From a bacterium (GTDB taxonomy: Bacteria > Fidelibacterota > Fidelibacteria > Fidelibacterales > Fidelibacteraceae), in the NCBI GenBank assembly GCA_963676395.1, contig OY781066.1, positions 2,112,001 through 2,176,000 on the forward strand: a DNA stretch of 64,000 nucleotides, read 5' to 3'. Position 1 is the first letter of the stretch; every line of letters begins with the position of its first letter. Position numbers: made by a program. Shown piece by piece: positions 15,001-24,000 of the stretch.

Positions 15001-18000
15001 TTTGAGCGCTCTTTATAATTTTAATGGCGAAGGTAAAGTCGTGGCCAATGGTCGCGTTGAACATTTTGTTGTTCGTGATGTTGATGGTGACGGAAAAGAT
15101 GAGATTATTTACACCAATAACGGTGGCTCATATGTTATTGATCGTACAGATGAAACAGCAACCGATACGACAGATTATGGTCACTCAGAAGATTTTATTG
15201 CCGTACTTTCAGCGACAGATGATCTTCAGGGATTTGGTCGTTTGCAGTGTGAATTTATTACCTCAGCTCGTGATATTGACATGGGTGTCCTTGGGTTAAC
15301 AAAAGATGATCCAATGTTTGGAAGAGATAATAGACTGGGTGGTGGTTCTCCCAATGCTGTTGAGGTTACGGATATTGATGGTGATGGACATAAAGAAATT
15401 GCATGTTTCGTATGGAACTATAACAATGTGTTCTTTATTGAGTCAACAGGTCCAGATACATACACATTTGGCGATACAACATACCAATATCTTACTGCTC
15501 CTGATGGCGTTTGTTTGCTCCAACCCGTTGTTGGCGATATAAACAGTGATGGAAAAGACGAAGCATATTTCTTTGACTACAATACAACGACCGCTTTTCA
15601 GGTATTTGATAATAATGATGATGCTACCAATTTTGATTCGACTGAATATGTTGTAATTAATGATGGAGAAAATGACCCTCATTCTATTTGTGGTGGTGTT
15701 TCCGGTGATATTGATGGTGATGGAAATAATGAAATTATCTTTGGTGACAATGCCTCTGAAGGTGATATTCTTGTTTGGGATGGTACAAGCTGGGATGTAT
15801 ATCATTCAGTTGAACCGGATACAAATATGTATAAAGGCACTGTAGCAGGTTTTGCAGGAAAATTTGTTGATCATTTAACTGATATTGATAATGATGGTTA
15901 CATGGAAGTAATTGCATGTTATCAAAGTGAAATTGATTCAGTTGAAGAGATTATCGGTACTGATACTAATCTGGTAGCCAATCCTTTTTATTCACCAATT
16001 CGTATCATTGAGTTCGGTGATGATGAGTTAGGTGAAGTTGTAGCGATTGATCCTGTTGTTATCACTCCTGATGACTTCAAATTGAATGCTGCATATCCTA
16101 ACCCATTCAATCCAACAACTTCAATTTCTTATTCTTTACCTTTGGCTAAAGAAGTATCATTGAAGATCTACAATGTACGCGGTGAATTAGTTAATGTATT
16201 AGTAGACAATCAAAGAGTTGAAGCGGGTACACACAATGTTGTATGGAACGCAACCGACATGATGGGTGCTCCTCTAGCAACTGGTGTATATGTATATACT
16301 TTGACATACGGTAATTTCTCAAAATCACAAAAAGTGACTCTGTTGAAATAATCATGATGATCCTAAGGGAGAGGTCTTCCTCTCCCTTTTTTTTGTCTTG
16401 TCTTAATTTTATTTGTTATAAAAAGGAATTAGAATGCAAAGGAAGTTGTTTATTGTAATATTTGCAATCTTCTCCATTATCTCAGTTGTATTTGCTGGTA
16501 CCTCCGGTAAAATTGCCGGAACGGTTCTTGATAATGACAGTGGCGATCCATTGATCGGCGTAAATGTCATGCTTGCAGGTACTTCAGTGGGAGCTGCCAC
16601 TGATCTAGAGGGTTATTTTACCATACTTAATGTATCTCCCGGTGTATATGAATTGGTTGCAACATCAATTGGTTACAAAACTTTTCGTATGAAAGATGTT
16701 CGTGTGTCAGTGGATCATACGACAAATATTGACATTAGCATGGAAACATCTGTTATTGCAGGTGAGGAAGTGGTTGTTGTAGCACAAAAAGAATTGATCC
16801 AGAAGGGGCTGACCTCCTCCGAGTCAAGTATTTCTGAAGATGAACTGGAGGCTATGCCGGTTGAATCATTTACCGGACTTTTAGCAACGCAAGCAGGGGT
16901 GACACAAGGTTCTGACGGTAAATTACACGTTAGAGGTGGTAGGTCCAGTGAAATTACATACATGGTTGACGGTATTCCGGTATCCAGTGATCTTGGCCTT
17001 TCGTTATCTACAAATGTTATTTCAGAATTAACATTGATTTCAGGTACTTTTAATGCTGAGTATGGTAAAGCCATGAGTGGAATTGTTAATATCGCCACTA
17101 AGGAAGGTGCTACAGAATTTAAATCACGGATTACAGCACAATTGGGTGATATGTTAACTTGGAACGATACCCATATCAAAGGAAATGAATTTAATCCGTT
17201 GGTATTTCAGCGTTATGATTTAGATATTAGCGGCCCTATCTCATTTTTATCTCAAGGATCTTATTTTATTACGGGAACGATAAGAAATAATTTGGGATGG
17301 CGTTATGGTGTGCGTGAGCATACAACTTATGATTATGGCCAAATTGGGAATAATAGTGCTAGGGTTCTGATGACCGGTGACAGTGCCTATGTACCTATGA
17401 ACACGAGCAATTCAGAAAAAATTATGGCAAAAATGTCATTTAAACCTCTGAAAAATACGAAACTTATGTATCAATTTATTGGTGATTTTGGCAGTTGGCA
17501 AAATTACGAACATCGTTGGAGATATGCTCCGGACGGACGTTATCAATATCATTCAAATGATATAATGCATGCGTTGCATATTACTCAAACGATTAATGAA
17601 AAAACATATTTTACTTTGAAATATTCATATAAATCAAGTCATTCGGAACAGTATGTAAATAAGATCGAATGGCCGGATAATTATAATGAAGATATCAATG
17701 GTAATGGTGTTATCGACATTATCCCGGGTTTGAATGTTTCCGAAGATCTAAACGGTAATGGTGTTTTAGATGATAATCTTGCCATAGATTGGGAATTTGT
17801 AAATAAATATGGTGCGTTTGTTCCCAATGATACCTGGTATAGCATCAATTTAGGTGATACGACTATCAATATTCCTTATTATGTTCAGGATAATGGAAGA
17901 ACCGATGTTCCGGCCTATCATTTTTATTATGGTGGACAAAGCATGGGGTATTACATTTCCGAAGACAAATCACACACTGTAAAGTTTGATTTTACTTCTC

Positions 18001-21000: not shown

Positions 21001-24000
21001 CCATTACAAATGCATTCGGTGTTCCGACATTGCATAAACCCATTGCCAAATTTGATCTTGATAATGGTATTACCGGTCCTGCTACAGTAGGTAATGGTGG
21101 TGTTCATTATGATTTAGGTACGGACAATGGTTTGGTTCATGAATATGTTGATACCGGACTTGTAAATGGTGTTACATACTATTATGCCGTTTGTTCTTAC
21201 GATATAGGTGATACCAGTGGAATTCACAATTTAACGCCGACAGAATGTACAAAGATTATTGACCAGGATCCTTATACAAAAGAGATTACATTGGATGATA
21301 ATACAGGTATGGCGACACCTCAAAAAGCCTCACCCGGTGTACAAGCTCCCGAACTGTTTAATGGTGAGCTCGATCGTACAAAATGTAAATCGGGGACGGG
21401 TGATATTGATATTGAATTTGTTGATATGATCAATGTTAAGAGTGATATGGAATATGAGATAACATTTGAAAACAGTGGTGTTGGTGGTGATCTTGAAATG
21501 TCAGTAACCAATTTGACAACGATTTATCATGATACTATTGAAGTTGTTACTACCCTGTGGACTCAAATGAATAAAACGCAGGTTTCACATGTTGAGGCAC
21601 GTGATAATGCTGGTAATATAATTTCACCGACACTTTATAATGTGGATAATGCAATCGGTCGTATTCAATTCGATGATAGTCTTCTGAATGAAACGGTCTA
21701 CTTAACATTTAATTATAAACCAATATTTAGAACGACGTATTTGGATAAAGAAGATGGTATGCCTGTTTTTGACGGCATGAAAATTTATGTCCAAAATGAC
21801 AACTTGGAAAGAAGTGACGAAAGAAGTGGGTGGATAAACAGCGAAACTAATTTATTGTCAAGCGTTACGTTGGAATCGGATATGATCTATGCACACGACT
21901 ATAAATTGGTATGGAACAGTGCGTACGAAAGTAGTCCCACTGTATTTAATCAATATGCACCTTTCAAGGTATATGACATGTATGATACCAGTGTAGCTCC
22001 TATTTATTTTTCTCCCCATGTAAATGGTCATTATACTATTAATTCGGATATTTTTATTTTGAGTGAAGCAACGGCATCACCGGACTACAATTTATGGCGA
22101 ATTTGGTTCAAGAATCCTGTTGTGGGTGAAACGATTATGCCTCAGGATGGTGATGAGTATAGAATTACTCTGAATAGACCATTTATTGCAAGCGATACAA
22201 TCAGTTTCAGTACCTTACCCGCTGAGTATGATCCTTCAGAAATTGATAATCCATTGGATGCGATCGTAGTGGTGCCGAATCCTTATACGGCCCAAGCTAT
22301 TTGGGAACCGTCTAATGGTTATGTCTCGGGGCGTGGTGAAAGACGGGTTTATTTTACTAATTTACCCCCTGTCTGCACTATTAAGATCTTTACTATCAGT
22401 GGTGAACATGTGAGAACACTTGAACACAATGACGGTGGAGACGTTAATCGGGTCATGTTCGATGGATCGGAATCCTATGATCTATTGAATAAGGATAATT
22501 CCGATATTGCTTTTGGTGTATATTTATGGCAGGTAGACGCCAAAGCATCGGGATTGGGTATTAAAACAGGAAAATTTGCGGTGATAAAATGAGAAAATAT
22601 ATTAAATACTTTTTATGCTTTATCGTTGCAATCTCTCAATTGTTTGCAACAACCAAATCAGGTACCTCTGCTGCTCAATTCCTGAAGATCGGCACTCAGG
22701 CCGGAACTTTGGGCATGGGGGAAGCCGTTGTCGCCAATCCCGTAGGTCTTTCCGCAATACAGTGGAATCCCGCCGGTTTGGCACGCTATGGTACACAGAC
22801 TGCCTCTTTCTCACAGTCAAACTGGTTGGTAGATACCGATTTTATGAATGCGGCCGCTGCCATTAATTTAGGCAGAATGGGTGCTGTCGGTTTCCAGTTA
22901 ACCATGTTGGATTACGGTGAAATGCGGGTTCGTACCGAATATGAACCCGATGGAACAGGGGAGTACTTTTCTGCTCAGGATTTTAACATGTCTTTAGCCT
23001 ATGCTAATAATCTAACTGATAGATTCTCTATTGGTGGTCAGGTTAAATATATTCAGCAGACTATTTGGCACATGAGTGCCTCAACCATCGCTTTTGATGT
23101 AGGCGCCTTGTTTACAACACCTTTCAAAGATATCCGTTTGGGTATGTCTATTACTAACTTTGGTGGTTATATGAGATTGACTGGTCGTGATATTAGTTTT
23201 TACGAAGATCCTGCTGAAGATATGTATGGTAACAATGGACATATTCCCGCTGAGTATACTATGGACAGTTGGGCCCTGCCTTTAACCTTTAGAGTTGGCC
23301 TCTCAGGCGATATTATTGATAAAGGCTATCTGCGTTGGACTTGGGCAATTGATGCGCTCCATCCCAGCGATAACACCGAATACATTAATGTGGGTACAGA
23401 ACTTGCACTTTGGAAGTTATTGTATCTTCGTACCGGCTATCGTACCATATTCATGGATGAAAGTCAGGGTGGTTTTACTGCCGGTATAGGCATGAACTAT
23501 AAATTCTCAGGGAATACAGGCGTTAATTTTGATTATGCTTTTGTATCTTACGGAGACCTTGGTTATGTAAATATGTTTACGATCGGTTTAGACTTCTAAA
23601 CCATCTTAAAATAGTATGATATGAGCACCGTGTAGAAATATGCGGTGCTTTTTTTATAGAAACTGGAAGGGAGTAAGGAGATTTTATGATCTGTGCCCCT
23701 AAGCCTTAGTAAAGGTCAAGTGAGGACTGCTCTAGCAGTCCAGTATTGTAGCTAAAATACACCCAAAATAGAGGGACTGTCTAAGCAGTCTAATATAATA
23801 GCTAGAATGCACTCGAAATTTAAAGGACAGCATCGCAGTCCAATATAATTCAATTCTCAAATTTTTAATTGAATAAAAAGAAGGCCCGTCTAAACGAGCC
23901 TTGTTGTTTTGTGTCTATTTGGTGGCTGATATACCTATCCGTTACTATTGCGTCGCGTATTGTTCAATGATTCCGATCTGTCTGATCGCAATGCTTACAT

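Follow-up and report, generated by a model that had tools for sequence, protein, structure and literature searches.

In a window of 64,000 nucleotides from a bacterium of the Fidelibacteraceae (assembly GCA_963676395.1, contig OY781066.1, positions 2,112,001 to 2,176,000), we have found that positions 16434–23599 are one operon, bounded by terminator-like hairpins, which encodes a TonB-dependent receptor, a large protein of no described family and a PorV/PorQ-family outer-membrane barrel. The operon is probably an outer-membrane unit for the capture and import of nutrients, where the barrel appears to hold the large protein on the cell. In particular, we incline, by a small measure, to the view that the large protein is delivered through a type IX secretion system (T9SS), is tethered by the barrel and works, in analogy to SusD, as the partner that captures the substrate for a dedicated TonB importer. 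An earlier survey of the whole genome had proposed a reading of this kind, and our analyses support it in part: the secretion tail, the barrel family, the conserved triad and the polysaccharide utilisation locus (PUL) contexts hold, while the identity of the receptor as SusC and the number of five copies do not.

Operon structure

Three co-directional ORFs lie on the forward strand exactly where the survey had placed its trio of adjacent genes: the receptor (938 aa, 16434–19250), the large protein (1112 aa, 19254–22592) and the barrel (336 aa, 22589–23599). They are assigned to a single operon because of the 3-nt gap between the receptor and the large gene, the 4-nt overlap between the large gene and the barrel gene, and the flanking hairpins. 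One of these hairpins lies upstream at 16365–16388 (+), between an FG-GAP gene and the operon (10-pair stem with 6 GC pairs, then a T run), and the other at the operon end, 23623–23650 (+; 12-pair stem, then a T run), both being called from a consensus scan only. In the flanks within the window, a GH13/CBM48 gene is found 3.6 kb downstream, and no CAZyme or cell-wall enzyme besides it.

A variant T9SS C-terminal domain

The last residues of the large protein, 985–1112 (22206–22592, +), run from VVPNPY through a conserved Glu and a GRGERR insertion to a C-terminal KFAVIK. A profile built from the last 130 aa detects 8 strong carriers in this genome (E 9e-14 to 6e-49), the same eight places that the survey had listed, and scores ordinary Por_Secre_tail proteins at only 1e-5 to 1e-2. 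In the reverse test, a profile made from the ordinary tails of the genome retrieves 78 proteins and misses all 8 variant carriers. When the two groups are aligned by hhalign, they match with 96.7% probability (E 3.5e-10), and a conserved insertion of 16 residues is seen. As judged from these profile comparisons, the divergent C-terminal domain of the survey's finding is real, being related to the type A T9SS tail and yet distinct from it. It is widespread, with 405 representative clusters at E<=1e-30; all 61 genomes that were sampled from the phylum, those of ~1 Mb included, carry it, at 1–29 copies per genome. SprA and PorU are present in this genome; since SprA is found in 60 of the 61 sampled genomes, again including the 1-Mb ones, the co-occurrence of the tail with T9SS is non-discriminating.

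The tail bears on the route of export. The adjacent barrel or the receptor-like barrel might itself be the route, as in two-partner secretion, and each cargo having its own barrel gene, as well as the trio being kept in a 1-Mb genome, would suit such a case. We regard this as very improbable, considering the homology of the tail with T9SS tails and of the barrel with PorV, and the distribution of SprA given above. PorV/PorQ-family barrels are not known to have a translocation role. According to the T9SS route, which we prefer, the 1112-aa protein would cross the inner membrane via Sec and the outer membrane via T9SS, using the variant C-terminal domain.

In the PDB, the variant-tail profile matches only PorZ (5m11, E 0.0025) and PorU (6za2, E 0.045), both marginally, and the tail of a sister protein matches the PorZ NCBIfam model at 2.3e-5. 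PorZ and PorU are described as keeping their tails, bound to PorQ and PorV, respectively (PMC10202324). The analogy with PorZ–PorQ fits the restriction of the PDB matches to these two proteins, and suggests that the variant tail may stay uncleaved on the adjacent barrel, as PorZ does on PorQ and PorU on PorV. If the tail stays bound in this way, the large protein would be tethered at the cell surface.

The PorV/PorQ-family barrel as candidate holder of the tail

The third gene belongs to the PorV/PorQ family, as the survey had assigned it: the product scores 198 bits against PorV_fam NF033709 (cut-off 90), its PorQ score (94.8 bits) is above its PorV score (62.3 bits), both being under the equivalog cut-offs, and a barrel profile matches the Flavobacterium johnsoniae PorV 6h3i_F at 1.4e-24. 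We have counted 10 PorV_fam-matching genes in this genome and not 8, as the survey had it. The survey had placed every barrel beside a gene with a C-terminal domain; in our count, 7 of the 10 directly adjoin a tail-bearing gene and 2 more have one in the same cluster, against a background of 8.4% of genes.

The barrel is proposed as the cognate holder of the variant tail. In complex prediction, barrel and tail reach an ipSAE of 0.89 in 3 runs, while the best control reaches 0.35; contact agreement between the runs is at least 93%, and the partner has a pLDDT of at least 71. Of 157 solved complexes, 116 came up to this mark, as did 2 of 215 mismatched pairs; this calibration holds only roughly because our own alignments were used. 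As PorV–tail complexes have already been solved (PMC10994853), the result may reflect likeness, not binding by this copy.

A different role for the barrel would be that of a T9SS shuttle only, which collects the cargo at the SprA translocon and afterwards releases it or passes it to PorU, as PorP/SprF-like proteins do with type B tails. The large protein would then be free or LPS-anchored, the receptor would take up the released material, and there would be no standing three-part complex. For the type B tails of F. johnsoniae, cognate pairs of shuttle and cargo genes are described as established (PMC12618676), PorV itself is described as a shuttle (PMC10202324), and complex prediction cannot tell transient from stable contact. 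We nevertheless consider the shuttle-only role rather unlikely, since the PDB matches of the tail profile are to the tails that PorZ and PorU retain, with no cleaved cargo tail among them, and strict co-inheritance with one receptor subfamily exceeds the needs of a generic shuttle. The F. johnsoniae system also combines a special tail class with a dedicated barrel gene beside the cargo, as described in PMC12618676; the tail here is a type A relative, the barrel is of the PorV/PorQ and not the PorP/SprF type, the cargo is no adhesin, and a receptor gene is linked.

Tethering, the role that we favour for the barrel, has its closest model in the PorZ–PorQ and PorU–PorV pairs of the Porphyromonas gingivalis attachment complex. 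They share with the module a retained tail on a PorV/PorQ-family barrel (in the module, a proposed one), the limited PDB matches of the tail, and the best equivalog score of the barrel on PorQ. Unlike them, the module has a passenger unrelated to PorZ or PorU, its barrel stays below both equivalog cut-offs, and the pair is multiplied within genomes and welded to a TonB receptor gene.

Fold and conservation of the large protein

The survey had described the large protein as being without a Pfam family, and for the 1112-aa copy in the window there is indeed no Pfam family at E<=1. NCBIfam gives no family either, apart from one stray repeat-model match (E 0.24, 11.2 bits, cut-off 41), and no PDB sequence match was found. 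Its homologues number more than 2794, and those with names are all called 'hypothetical'. The AlphaFold2 model (pLDDT 76.8, pTM 0.71) is almost all beta according to DSSP.

Residues ~55–684 (19416–21305, +) form a beta-supersandwich of the GH15/GH65/GH94/GH116 N-domain type together with an FN3-like domain. The supersandwich, which reproduces the survey's assignment, aligns by VIA-align to 9ju0, 1lf6, 1ug9, 5npf, 3qde and others with Z of 17–20.1, over 234–282 residues and with rmsd of 2.9–4.2 A. In these solved relatives it is a non-catalytic accessory domain, and the active site lies in a separate (alpha/alpha)6 domain; in our model no catalytic helical domain follows it. By fold likeness, the supersandwich may bind glycans. 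Within this region, residues 350–435 (20301–20558, +) form an acidic insertion of the DGIDNDxDG type, which is modelled at low confidence (pLDDT <50) and is highly conserved, with many invariant or near-invariant Asp in an alignment of 35 sequences; it is possibly calcium-binding.

Across phyla, the large protein is 37–41% identical over 1100 aa and contains numerous invariant residues of the types Asp, His, Trp and Tyr, a GDPHIGG motif included. Since such conservation is commoner in catalytic or metal sites than in SusD-like binders, it counts toward the large protein being an enzyme of a new family, e.g., a glycan- or peptidoglycan-cleaving one, rather than a passive binder, with the triad still serving uptake. 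This seems unlikely to us, as no catalytic domain is recognisable, the active-site domain of the solved relatives is absent, and neither a family nor a PDB sequence match has been found.

Between supersandwich and tail, residues 686–985 (21309–22208, +) form three small beta domains without a clear solved relative. Modelled separately, they reach a pLDDT of 91.7 and have no Foldseek match at E<=0.001; their best VIA Z is 9.6, to a FlgL D2-like domain, followed by 8–9 to Ig-like domains of phage tails. This weak resemblance to Ig-like decoration domains and to the D2 domains of flagellar junctions, together with the T9SS adhesins with dedicated barrels that are described in PMC12618676, would agree with a surface-structure or adhesion module, such as an adhesin of the cell coat or of the gliding type that has a barrel of its own, where the receptor would have a signalling or other role. 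Such a module is quite improbable, because the receptor has a plug and a conserved TonB-box-like motif, the sister triads lie inside catabolic loci, and streamlined 1-Mb genomes retain the triad. For a binding partner, as we prefer, the supersandwich and the beta domains would capture a polymer or oligomer and hand it over to the receptor encoded upstream for import.

The receptor and its relation to SusC

The receptor matches CarbopepD_reg_2 (1.9e-20), Plug (2.4e-9) and TonB barrel (1.5e-26) in Pfam. It consists of a signal peptide, a CarboxypepD_reg-like N-terminal extension (27–115), a TonB-box-like motif GEEVVVVA (109–116), which is kept in 31 of 31 aligned relatives, a plug (126–216) and the barrel. 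The survey had called it SusC-like, but it does not belong to the SusC/RagA family: that model gives 87 bits against a cut-off of 368, and the match is limited to the N-terminal 210 residues. No solved TonB receptor is matched at E<=0.001.

The module resembles SusC/SusD of Bacteroidota PULs in that a TonB-dependent receptor with a CarboxypepD_reg-like extension is encoded beside a surface partner and that sister triads lie among CAZyme genes. It differs in the receptor failing the SusC/RagA model, in a partner that is a predicted T9SS cargo of 700–1300 aa and not a SusD-fold lipoprotein, and in an obligatory third gene for the barrel; a search of this genome, at 95% completeness, found no SusD (PF07980). 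The pair of large protein and barrel would take the place of SusD and surface glycan-binding lipoproteins beside SusC, with T9SS and the barrel replacing the lipid anchor. A non-SusD binding partner encoded next to a TonB-dependent transporter is also described for the DNA-utilisation transporter DdbC–DdbD of Bacteroides thetaiotaomicron, where DdbD is described as a DUF5689 protein (bioRxiv 10.1101/2025.03.18.642099). Unlike the large protein here, DdbD has neither a T9SS tail nor a barrel gene.

Copies in this genome

All five loci listed by the survey exist, and three of them are true triads in the order receptor, large protein, barrel (contig 519509–527177, 1289061–1296298 and the one in the window). 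The locus at 609692–626320 is a composite of two receptors, three tail proteins and one barrel, and that at 2091835–2101901 has a different gene order. The carrier at 665655–668009 stands alone, with neither receptor nor barrel, as the survey had noted. Within the genome, the 6 receptors of the module group together (E<=4e-68), and the next paralogue follows at 6e-24. As these receptors are mutual closest paralogues and a largely similar ranking is found for the barrels and tails, the parts of the module seem to have been co-duplicated, which we count as support. The paralogous triads would serve different substrates.

Conservation and contexts in other genomes

Thousands of uncultured bacteria have the same trio, and genes for the degradation of sugars or of cell walls are often found next to it. 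We have sampled 80 related loci, titled Neomarinimicrobiota, Rhodothermales, Calditrichota, Kryptoniota, Delongbacteria and others, of which 76 contain a full-length large gene. Among these 76, 70 have the receptor upstream and on the same strand under a strict window and 3 more (L025, L026, L073) have it just beyond that window, and the barrel is directly downstream of the large gene in 74, the contig ending there in the other two. That is, the gene order is nearly invariant across several phyla, which bears out the conservation reported by the survey. Two genomes of ~1 Mb retain a single intact triad, and in another genome (G047) the only variant-tail copy stands without receptor or barrel.

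On one Rhodothermales chromosome, the triad is complete in 7 of the 9 neighbourhoods fetched, and 6 of the 8 with Pfam-scanned neighbours lie beside CAZyme, sulfatase or sugar-metabolism genes, including an alginate-lyase-like set. Polysaccharide-utilisation contexts are supported for the sister triads. In Rhodothermus marinus, the alginate locus is printed as tonB, a T9SS sorting-domain protein, a PorV/PorQ family protein, a hypothetical and a PL6 lyase (PMC9530828, Fig. 2 legend), and the xylan locus Rmar_1070–1072 as a receptor, a hypothetical with a Por tail and a further hypothetical (PMC6987092, Table 1). This printed gene pattern, that of hypA/hypB in the alginate locus and of Rmar_1070–1072, is the same as in our module; the authors list these genes as hypotheticals and leave them uninterpreted. 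Judging from a Rhodothermales genome in which the locus is laid out alike (L102), and not from their own sequences, the R. marinus loci would belong to the variant-tail class.

Two observations go beyond the survey's finding. The company in which the window's own orthologue group most often stands is that of peptidoglycan-turnover genes, which occur in 34 of 80 loci of this group and offer a new lead. The FG-GAP repeat protein encoded upstream of the operon (609 aa, 14522–16351, +) matches FG-GAP (9e-18), FG-GAP_3 (1e-14) and Por_Secre_tail (3e-7) in Pfam and TIGR04183 at 4e-10, and its tail is of the ordinary T9SS type A. This accessory neighbour has a transcription unit apart from the operon, and in 39 of the 80 related loci the gene directly upstream of that for the receptor encodes a homologue.

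A three-gene operon with a SusC-like receptor order

The module at 16434-23599 consists of three open reading frames on the forward strand. Gene 1 (16434-19250) encodes a TonB-dependent receptor of 938 aa, gene 2 (19254-22592) a large protein of 1112 aa, and gene 3 (22589-23599) a PorV/PorQ-family barrel of 336 aa. Since only 3 nt separate genes 1 and 2, genes 2 and 3 overlap by 4 nt, and strong terminator-like hairpins lie just 5' of gene 1 (16365-16388) and just 3' of gene 3 (23623-23650), the unit reads as a three-gene operon.

According to Pfam, the receptor is composed of a CarbopepD_reg_2 N-terminal extension, a Plug domain and a TonB_dep_Rec_b-barrel domain, and its TonB-box-like sequence GEEVVVVA is kept in all of the 31 aligned relatives. 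The order of CarboxypepD_reg-like extension, TonB box, plug and barrel is shared with SusC/RagA (TIGR04056). However, SusC/RagA proteins reach the curated cut-off of this model over their full length and have a gene for a SusD/RagB-family lipoprotein adjacent, whereas the window's receptor scores 87.2 bits against a cut-off of 368.25, with residues 26-235 alone aligning to model positions 2-215. Pfam detects no SusD domain in the product of the gene downstream of the receptor, and PF07980 (SusD) has no match anywhere in the window's genome, at a completeness of 95.3%.

A pair of DxNGNGxxD motifs, dockerin- or EF-hand-like, occurs in a predicted loop of the receptor (residues ~420-450, window 17691-17780). 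We have rejected its reading as a docking site, because the pair is confined to the closest relatives and absent from the wider family.

Upstream of the operon, a gene at 14522-16351 encodes an FG-GAP repeat protein of 609 aa with an ordinary T9SS tail (Por_Secre_tail, type A), and a terminator-like hairpin stands between it and the operon. In 39 of the 80 related loci from other genomes, homologues of ~600 aa stand immediately upstream of the receptor gene, whichever strand they are on. The FG-GAP protein may be a fourth component of the module.

A divergent T9SS tail ends the large protein

The last ~128 residues of the large protein are a variant of the T9SS C-terminal domain. A profile built from the last 130 residues of this protein and five paralogues finds eight strong carriers in the window's genome (E 9e-14 to 6e-49), ordinary T9SS cargo being far weaker. 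A profile of the ordinary tail, seeded with eight Por_Secre_tail domains of the same genome, matches 78 proteins and none of the eight variant carriers. Nonetheless, the two profiles are homologous when aligned by hhalign (96.7%, E 3.5e-10, 78 columns). The variant tail shares with the type A sorting domain (PF18962 / TIGR04183) the C-terminal position, the PNP-type first strand and the K-x-x-x-K-type end, but lacks a match to the family models: the 1112-aa protein hits neither of them at E<=1 in Pfam and NCBIfam. In addition, it has a 16-residue insertion after the PNPY strand, which carries a conserved Glu and a GRGERR-type motif across phyla.

Among all PDB sequences, the nearest tails are those of PorZ (5m11, E 0.0025) and PorU (6za2, E 0.045), the only matches of the tail profile, and both are marginal. 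PorZ ends in FAVIR and the family in FAVIK, and the tail of a sister protein, from another variant-tail locus of this genome, marginally matches the NCBIfam model of PorZ (2.3e-5). In the available part of one review, PorU and PorZ are described as the two T9SS proteins with unremoved tails, PorU staying on PorV and PorZ on PorQ, and cognate PorV-like barrels are suggested to protect such tails (PMC10202324). SprA and PorU are both encoded in the window's genome. Judging from its sequence, the large protein is probably exported by the T9SS. The variant tail would then be a third tail class with a cognate barrel, beside type A/PorV and type B/PorP/SprF, and would enlarge the catalogue of T9SS sorting signals.

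The barrel is predicted to hold the tail

The gene 3 protein is a member of the PorV/PorQ family (NF033709, 198.3 bits, cut-off 90), and a profile of 34 orthologues matches PorV 6h3i_F at 1.4e-24. It scores below the equivalog cut-offs of both PorQ (NF033711, 94.8 vs 220 bits) and PorV (NF033710, 62.3 vs 250 bits).

We have predicted the complex of the barrel (residues 21-336) with the end of the large protein (residues 960-1112). The ipSAE is 0.89 in each of three runs, while the best control gives 0.35; contact agreement is at least 93% and the pLDDT of the partners at least 71. The ipSAE mark is passed by 116 of 157 solved complexes and by 2 of 215 mismatched pairs, counts that are rough only since our own alignments were used. 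The predicted interface involves barrel residues 21-34, 79-83, 107-129 and 157-164, and tail residues 1005-1013, 1044-1055, 1079-1095 and 1103-1112. As PorV-tail complexes have already been solved, according to the accessible part of the report (PMC10994853), the high score may reflect likeness rather than binding by the window's copy. We infer that the variant tail is not cut off and remains attached to the barrel, the rival explanation being that the barrel is a transient shuttle.

The large protein has a beta-supersandwich without a catalytic barrel

The gene 2 protein matches no Pfam family at E<=1, and NCBIfam gives one stray repeat-model match only (E 0.24). Of 8000 scored candidates, more than 2794 are homologous to it, and even in other phyla the identity is 37–41% across the full length. 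None of the best 120 bears a functional name; those named by their sources are hypothetical proteins, except for two Tara gene-call labels. A full-length family profile finds no PDB sequence at E<=1, and a search of the ESM Atlas returns only unnamed clusters of the same family.

The AlphaFold2 model of the whole protein was made from 35 sequences (pLDDT 76.8, pTM 0.71). In the model, residues ~55-684 form an N-terminal beta-supersandwich, aligned by VIA to solved enzymes with Z of 17–20.1 over 234–282 residues (rmsd 2.9–4.2 A). Among the matches are bacterial glucoamylase, glucodextranase, GH94 phosphorylases, GH116 glucosidase, GH65 enzymes and dextran dextrinase. On a rival reading, the large protein is an enzyme and not a binder. 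Enzymes of GH15/GH65/GH94/GH116 have a catalytic (alpha/alpha)6 barrel after the supersandwich, which is absent here; the models contain no helical domain and are almost all beta past the signal peptide. The supersandwich became evident with VIA and not with Foldseek, which gave weak multi-domain matches for the whole model (TM 0.06–0.18).

Within this region, an acidic insertion at residues 350-435, highly conserved and poorly modelled, may bind calcium. The middle region 686-985, when folded alone (pLDDT 91.7), shows small beta domains; neither Foldseek nor VIA finds a solved match above common beta arrangements, and we do not claim a new fold. Enlarged family members of ~1350-1600 aa are also present (loci L082 and L086; proteins P0071, P0086, P0087, P0099 and P0117), and those of ~1350 aa have Reg_prop (PF07494) beta-propeller repeats inserted where the window's protein is variable.

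The module recurs in the window's genome

The genome is a single contig of 2.34 Mb with 38% GC. Its eight carriers occupy five loci, apart from one gene that stands alone. Clean triads make up three of the loci, a fourth combines two receptors with three carriers and a single barrel, and in the fifth the genes are ordered differently. The receptors of these loci, six in all, are mutually closest paralogues (E<=4e-68, the next receptor at 6e-24), in a genome with 14 receptors bearing a CarboxypepD_reg-type extension above the Pfam cut-off. Among the ten genes matching PorV_fam, seven abut a tail-bearing gene, and a further two share a cluster with one; the background is 8.4% of all genes. On crude gene calls, ordinary or variant T9SS tails are found on 86 of ~1945 (4.4%), a very large T9SS secretome for 2.3 Mb.

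The composite locus (contig 609692-626320; 1595-18220 in the coordinates of L002) encodes on one strand a receptor, a 784-aa carrier, a 490-aa protein, a PorV-like barrel, a second receptor, a 740-aa carrier, a 240-aa protein and a 749-aa carrier. With one barrel among three carriers, the three variant tails may share it. This barrel matches PorP_SprF as well (3.6e-9).

Elsewhere, at contig 1318727-1324587, a 1605-aa PorU-like protein is encoded directly before another PorV-like barrel. Its scores with the sortase model (138 + 84 bits) are below the cut-off, and the true PorU is separate (contig 1960796-1964686). The pair may be a second sortase-like or a PorZ-like attachment pair.

The gene order is conserved across genomes and phyla

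One genome per species was scanned, and the best 80 of at least 589 confirmed relatives were taken as the locus set. The large gene is full-length in 76 of the 80 loci, the other four being interrupted by contig ends. A receptor lies directly upstream on the same strand in 70 of these 76 under a strict window, and in L025, L026 and L073 it is just beyond this window; L039 and L086 begin at a contig edge, and L031 has a barrel gene upstream instead. The barrel follows directly downstream in 74 of 76, and the remaining two reach a contig end. In L031 (3-4118), a short Calditrichota contig, the PorV-like ORF directly upstream of the large gene may mark where a tandem module ends.

Against 1.84 billion representative proteins, the tail profile matches 405 clusters at E<=1e-30 and 4954 at E<=1e-10, and the domain is at the very C-terminus in 149 of the 150 best representatives. 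Beyond the phylum, the variant tail occurs in Rhodothermales, Calditrichota, Kryptoniota and others. In an even sample of the window's phylum (>=85% complete), it is found in 61/61 genomes, with 1 to 29 copies each. Of these 61 genomes, 60 have SprA. With the two together in nearly every genome, their co-occurrence does not discriminate. The rival that the large protein is exported independently of the T9SS is to be weighed against the homology of the variant and ordinary tails.

Four single-copy genomes were examined. The triad is intact in two of ~1 Mb and in one of 1.9 Mb, and the fourth (G047) has a single carrier without recognisable receptor or barrel. Three genomes of ~0.9-1.1 Mb from the same phylum (G023, G031, G039) each retain a SprA of ~2060 aa and just one variant-tail gene, with the intact triad confirmed in G023 and G039; this suggests that the triad is close to indispensable in the streamlined lineage.

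A proposed SusD-free way of arming a TonB receptor

Bacteroidota forage for polymers by TonB-dependent import with the help of a surface partner, and it is the SusC/SusD pair by which such loci are recognised. The triad does not belong to the SusC/SusD families, since the receptor fails the SusC model, SusD is absent, and the fold and surface route of the partner differ. The best-supported reading is that it is a TonB-dependent import unit in which the T9SS delivers the surface partner and a private PorQ-like barrel holds it by its retained tail. That is, the T9SS would bring the large protein to the surface, the retained tail would tether it to the barrel, and the triad would work in a way analogous to SusC with SusD and surface glycan-binding proteins. 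Secretion, tail retention, tethering, receptor contact and substrate are all what we infer here.

In this reading the triad brings together two known themes, a TonB importer that works with a partner at the surface and a T9SS cargo that has its cognate barrel. It would be a second, SusD-free way of arming a TonB receptor, in which the T9SS and the private PorQ-like barrel replace the lipid anchor. As the triad loci lack SusD, genome mining keyed on SusC/SusD would miss them. The triad is common, and Fidelibacterota is a globally abundant phylum. Our literature searches, with most subscription journals and supplements outside their scope, found no paper interpreting the triad, and two that print its genes as hypotheticals.

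Sister triads keep company with polysaccharide genes

Both of these papers, in their available parts, concern Rhodothermus marinus. In its alginate locus, the genes of the triad pattern are counted by the authors among "four hypothetical genes" (PMC9530828). In its xylan locus, the receptor Rmar_1070, the hypothetical protein Rmar_1071 with a Por tail, and the hypothetical protein Rmar_1072 stand beside a true SusC/SusD pair (PMC6987092). A homologue search for the R. marinus proteins with the 716-aa paralogue gave only Marinimicrobia-type proteins among the best 120, and a Rhodothermales chromosome with the same locus layout (G062) was used as a stand-in.

This chromosome has 10 variant-tail genes. 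Nine neighbourhoods were inspected, and seven contain a complete triad; in L096 the receptor and carrier are visible and the barrel is masked by a crude gene call. Pfam scans covered eight neighbourhoods (all but L101), and carbohydrate genes adjoin six of them. The neighbours in L102 are Heparinase II/III-like, beta-helix and Chondroitinase_B (PL6-type) proteins, all three matched by the ordinary-tail profile and the PL6-type one also by Pfam Por_Secre_tail, and the layout is that of the R. marinus alginate locus. In the others we find CBM20, two GH53, GH13 and a sulfatase (L097); a sulfatase, a SASA esterase and GH5+CBM6 (L096); a sugar kinase, RhaT and an FGE-sulfatase (L100); a sulfatase and a xylose-isomerase-like protein (L103); and LacI with a fucose-isomerase-like protein (L104).

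Within the window's genome, sister triads adjoin a T9SS-tailed alpha-amylase and tailed S8 and M6-like peptidases. The flanks of the window's own operon contain no secreted CAZyme. Its locus shares the CAZyme company of a polysaccharide-utilisation locus (SusC/SusD pair with CAZymes) only through sister triads elsewhere, and differs from one in having neither SusD nor a flanking secreted CAZyme. A rival to the import unit is that the triad is a surface structure, to be weighed against the carbohydrate genes that accompany sister triads.

In L099 of the same Rhodothermales chromosome (11321-16140), two FG-GAP/ASPIC-UnbV proteins, in alternation with TPR proteins, take the place of CAZymes after the triad; the link between FG-GAP propellers and triads thus recurs.

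The window's orthologues and peptidoglycan genes

A FastTree tree was built from 76 sequences, namely the window's large protein (P0002), 73 full-length locus proteins and two own paralogues of the 1100-aa type, with seven loci lacking a clean full-length ORF left out. In this tree, rooted at its midpoint and read without regard to support values, the two own paralogues lie outside the clade of P0002 and all 73 loci.

Within the orthologous loci, an Amidase_2-type protein, usually T9SS-tailed, adjoins the module in 28 of 80, in most directly after the barrel gene. The profile search behind this count gave 29 matches, one of which (L015) is an FG-GAP protein, and Pfam confirmed the amidase domain in all four of those scanned. 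Five Rhodothermales genomes have six Amidase_2 matches in total, and five of the six are ~2 kb from the tail of a window-type module. AnmK directly follows the barrel in L009 (8e-90), the locus of a 53%-identical relative in P0002's own subclade, and does so in L037 as well. Other flanks contain a GH3-beta-lactamase fusion together with genes for a BadF-type kinase-like protein and an SSF symporter (L050, L062), LD-carboxypeptidase (L022, L063, L080), NlpC/P60 (L022), Amidase_3 (L059, L037) and alanine racemase (L032). Overall, 34 of the 80 loci have at least one peptidoglycan-turnover gene within 6 kb; arrangements differ between clades, and the 34 are not independent events because the loci are related to one another. 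Paralogous triads of the same genomes adjoin other enzyme sets.

According to the available part of its description, the phylum's only isolate lives on exogenous muropeptides, a dependence traced back to the phylum's ancestors, and that part mentions neither TonB nor secretion (PMC11652737). It is conceivable, though we lean somewhat against it, that a peptidoglycan-utilisation locus has its outer-membrane gateway in the window's orthologue family. Cell-wall enzymes secreted by the T9SS, above all a MurNAc-L-Ala amidase, would strip foreign peptidoglycan; the supersandwich protein on its PorQ-like barrel would capture glycan strands or muropeptides; and the dedicated TonB receptor would import them for the AnmK / NagZ / LdcA recycling route. 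As every sampled Fidelibacterota genome has the family and even 1-Mb genomes keep it, it could supply the outer-membrane step that is missing from the muropeptide scavenging described for the isolate. If so, marine and sediment bacteria would have a route to harvest cell-wall debris, and the outer-membrane step of cell-wall scavenging would become directly testable.

For the window's copy, this link comes from orthology only, since its genome lacks both Amidase_2 and S66 peptidase, possesses Mur ligases of its own, and encodes AnmK far from the window; no cell-wall gene stands beside the operon. At contig 2176703-2179378, 703 nt past the window's end, a protein of 891 aa that bears an ordinary T9SS tail resembles the Amidase_3-type protein of L059 (8e-43), and is a candidate for a secreted cell-wall amidase of this genome.
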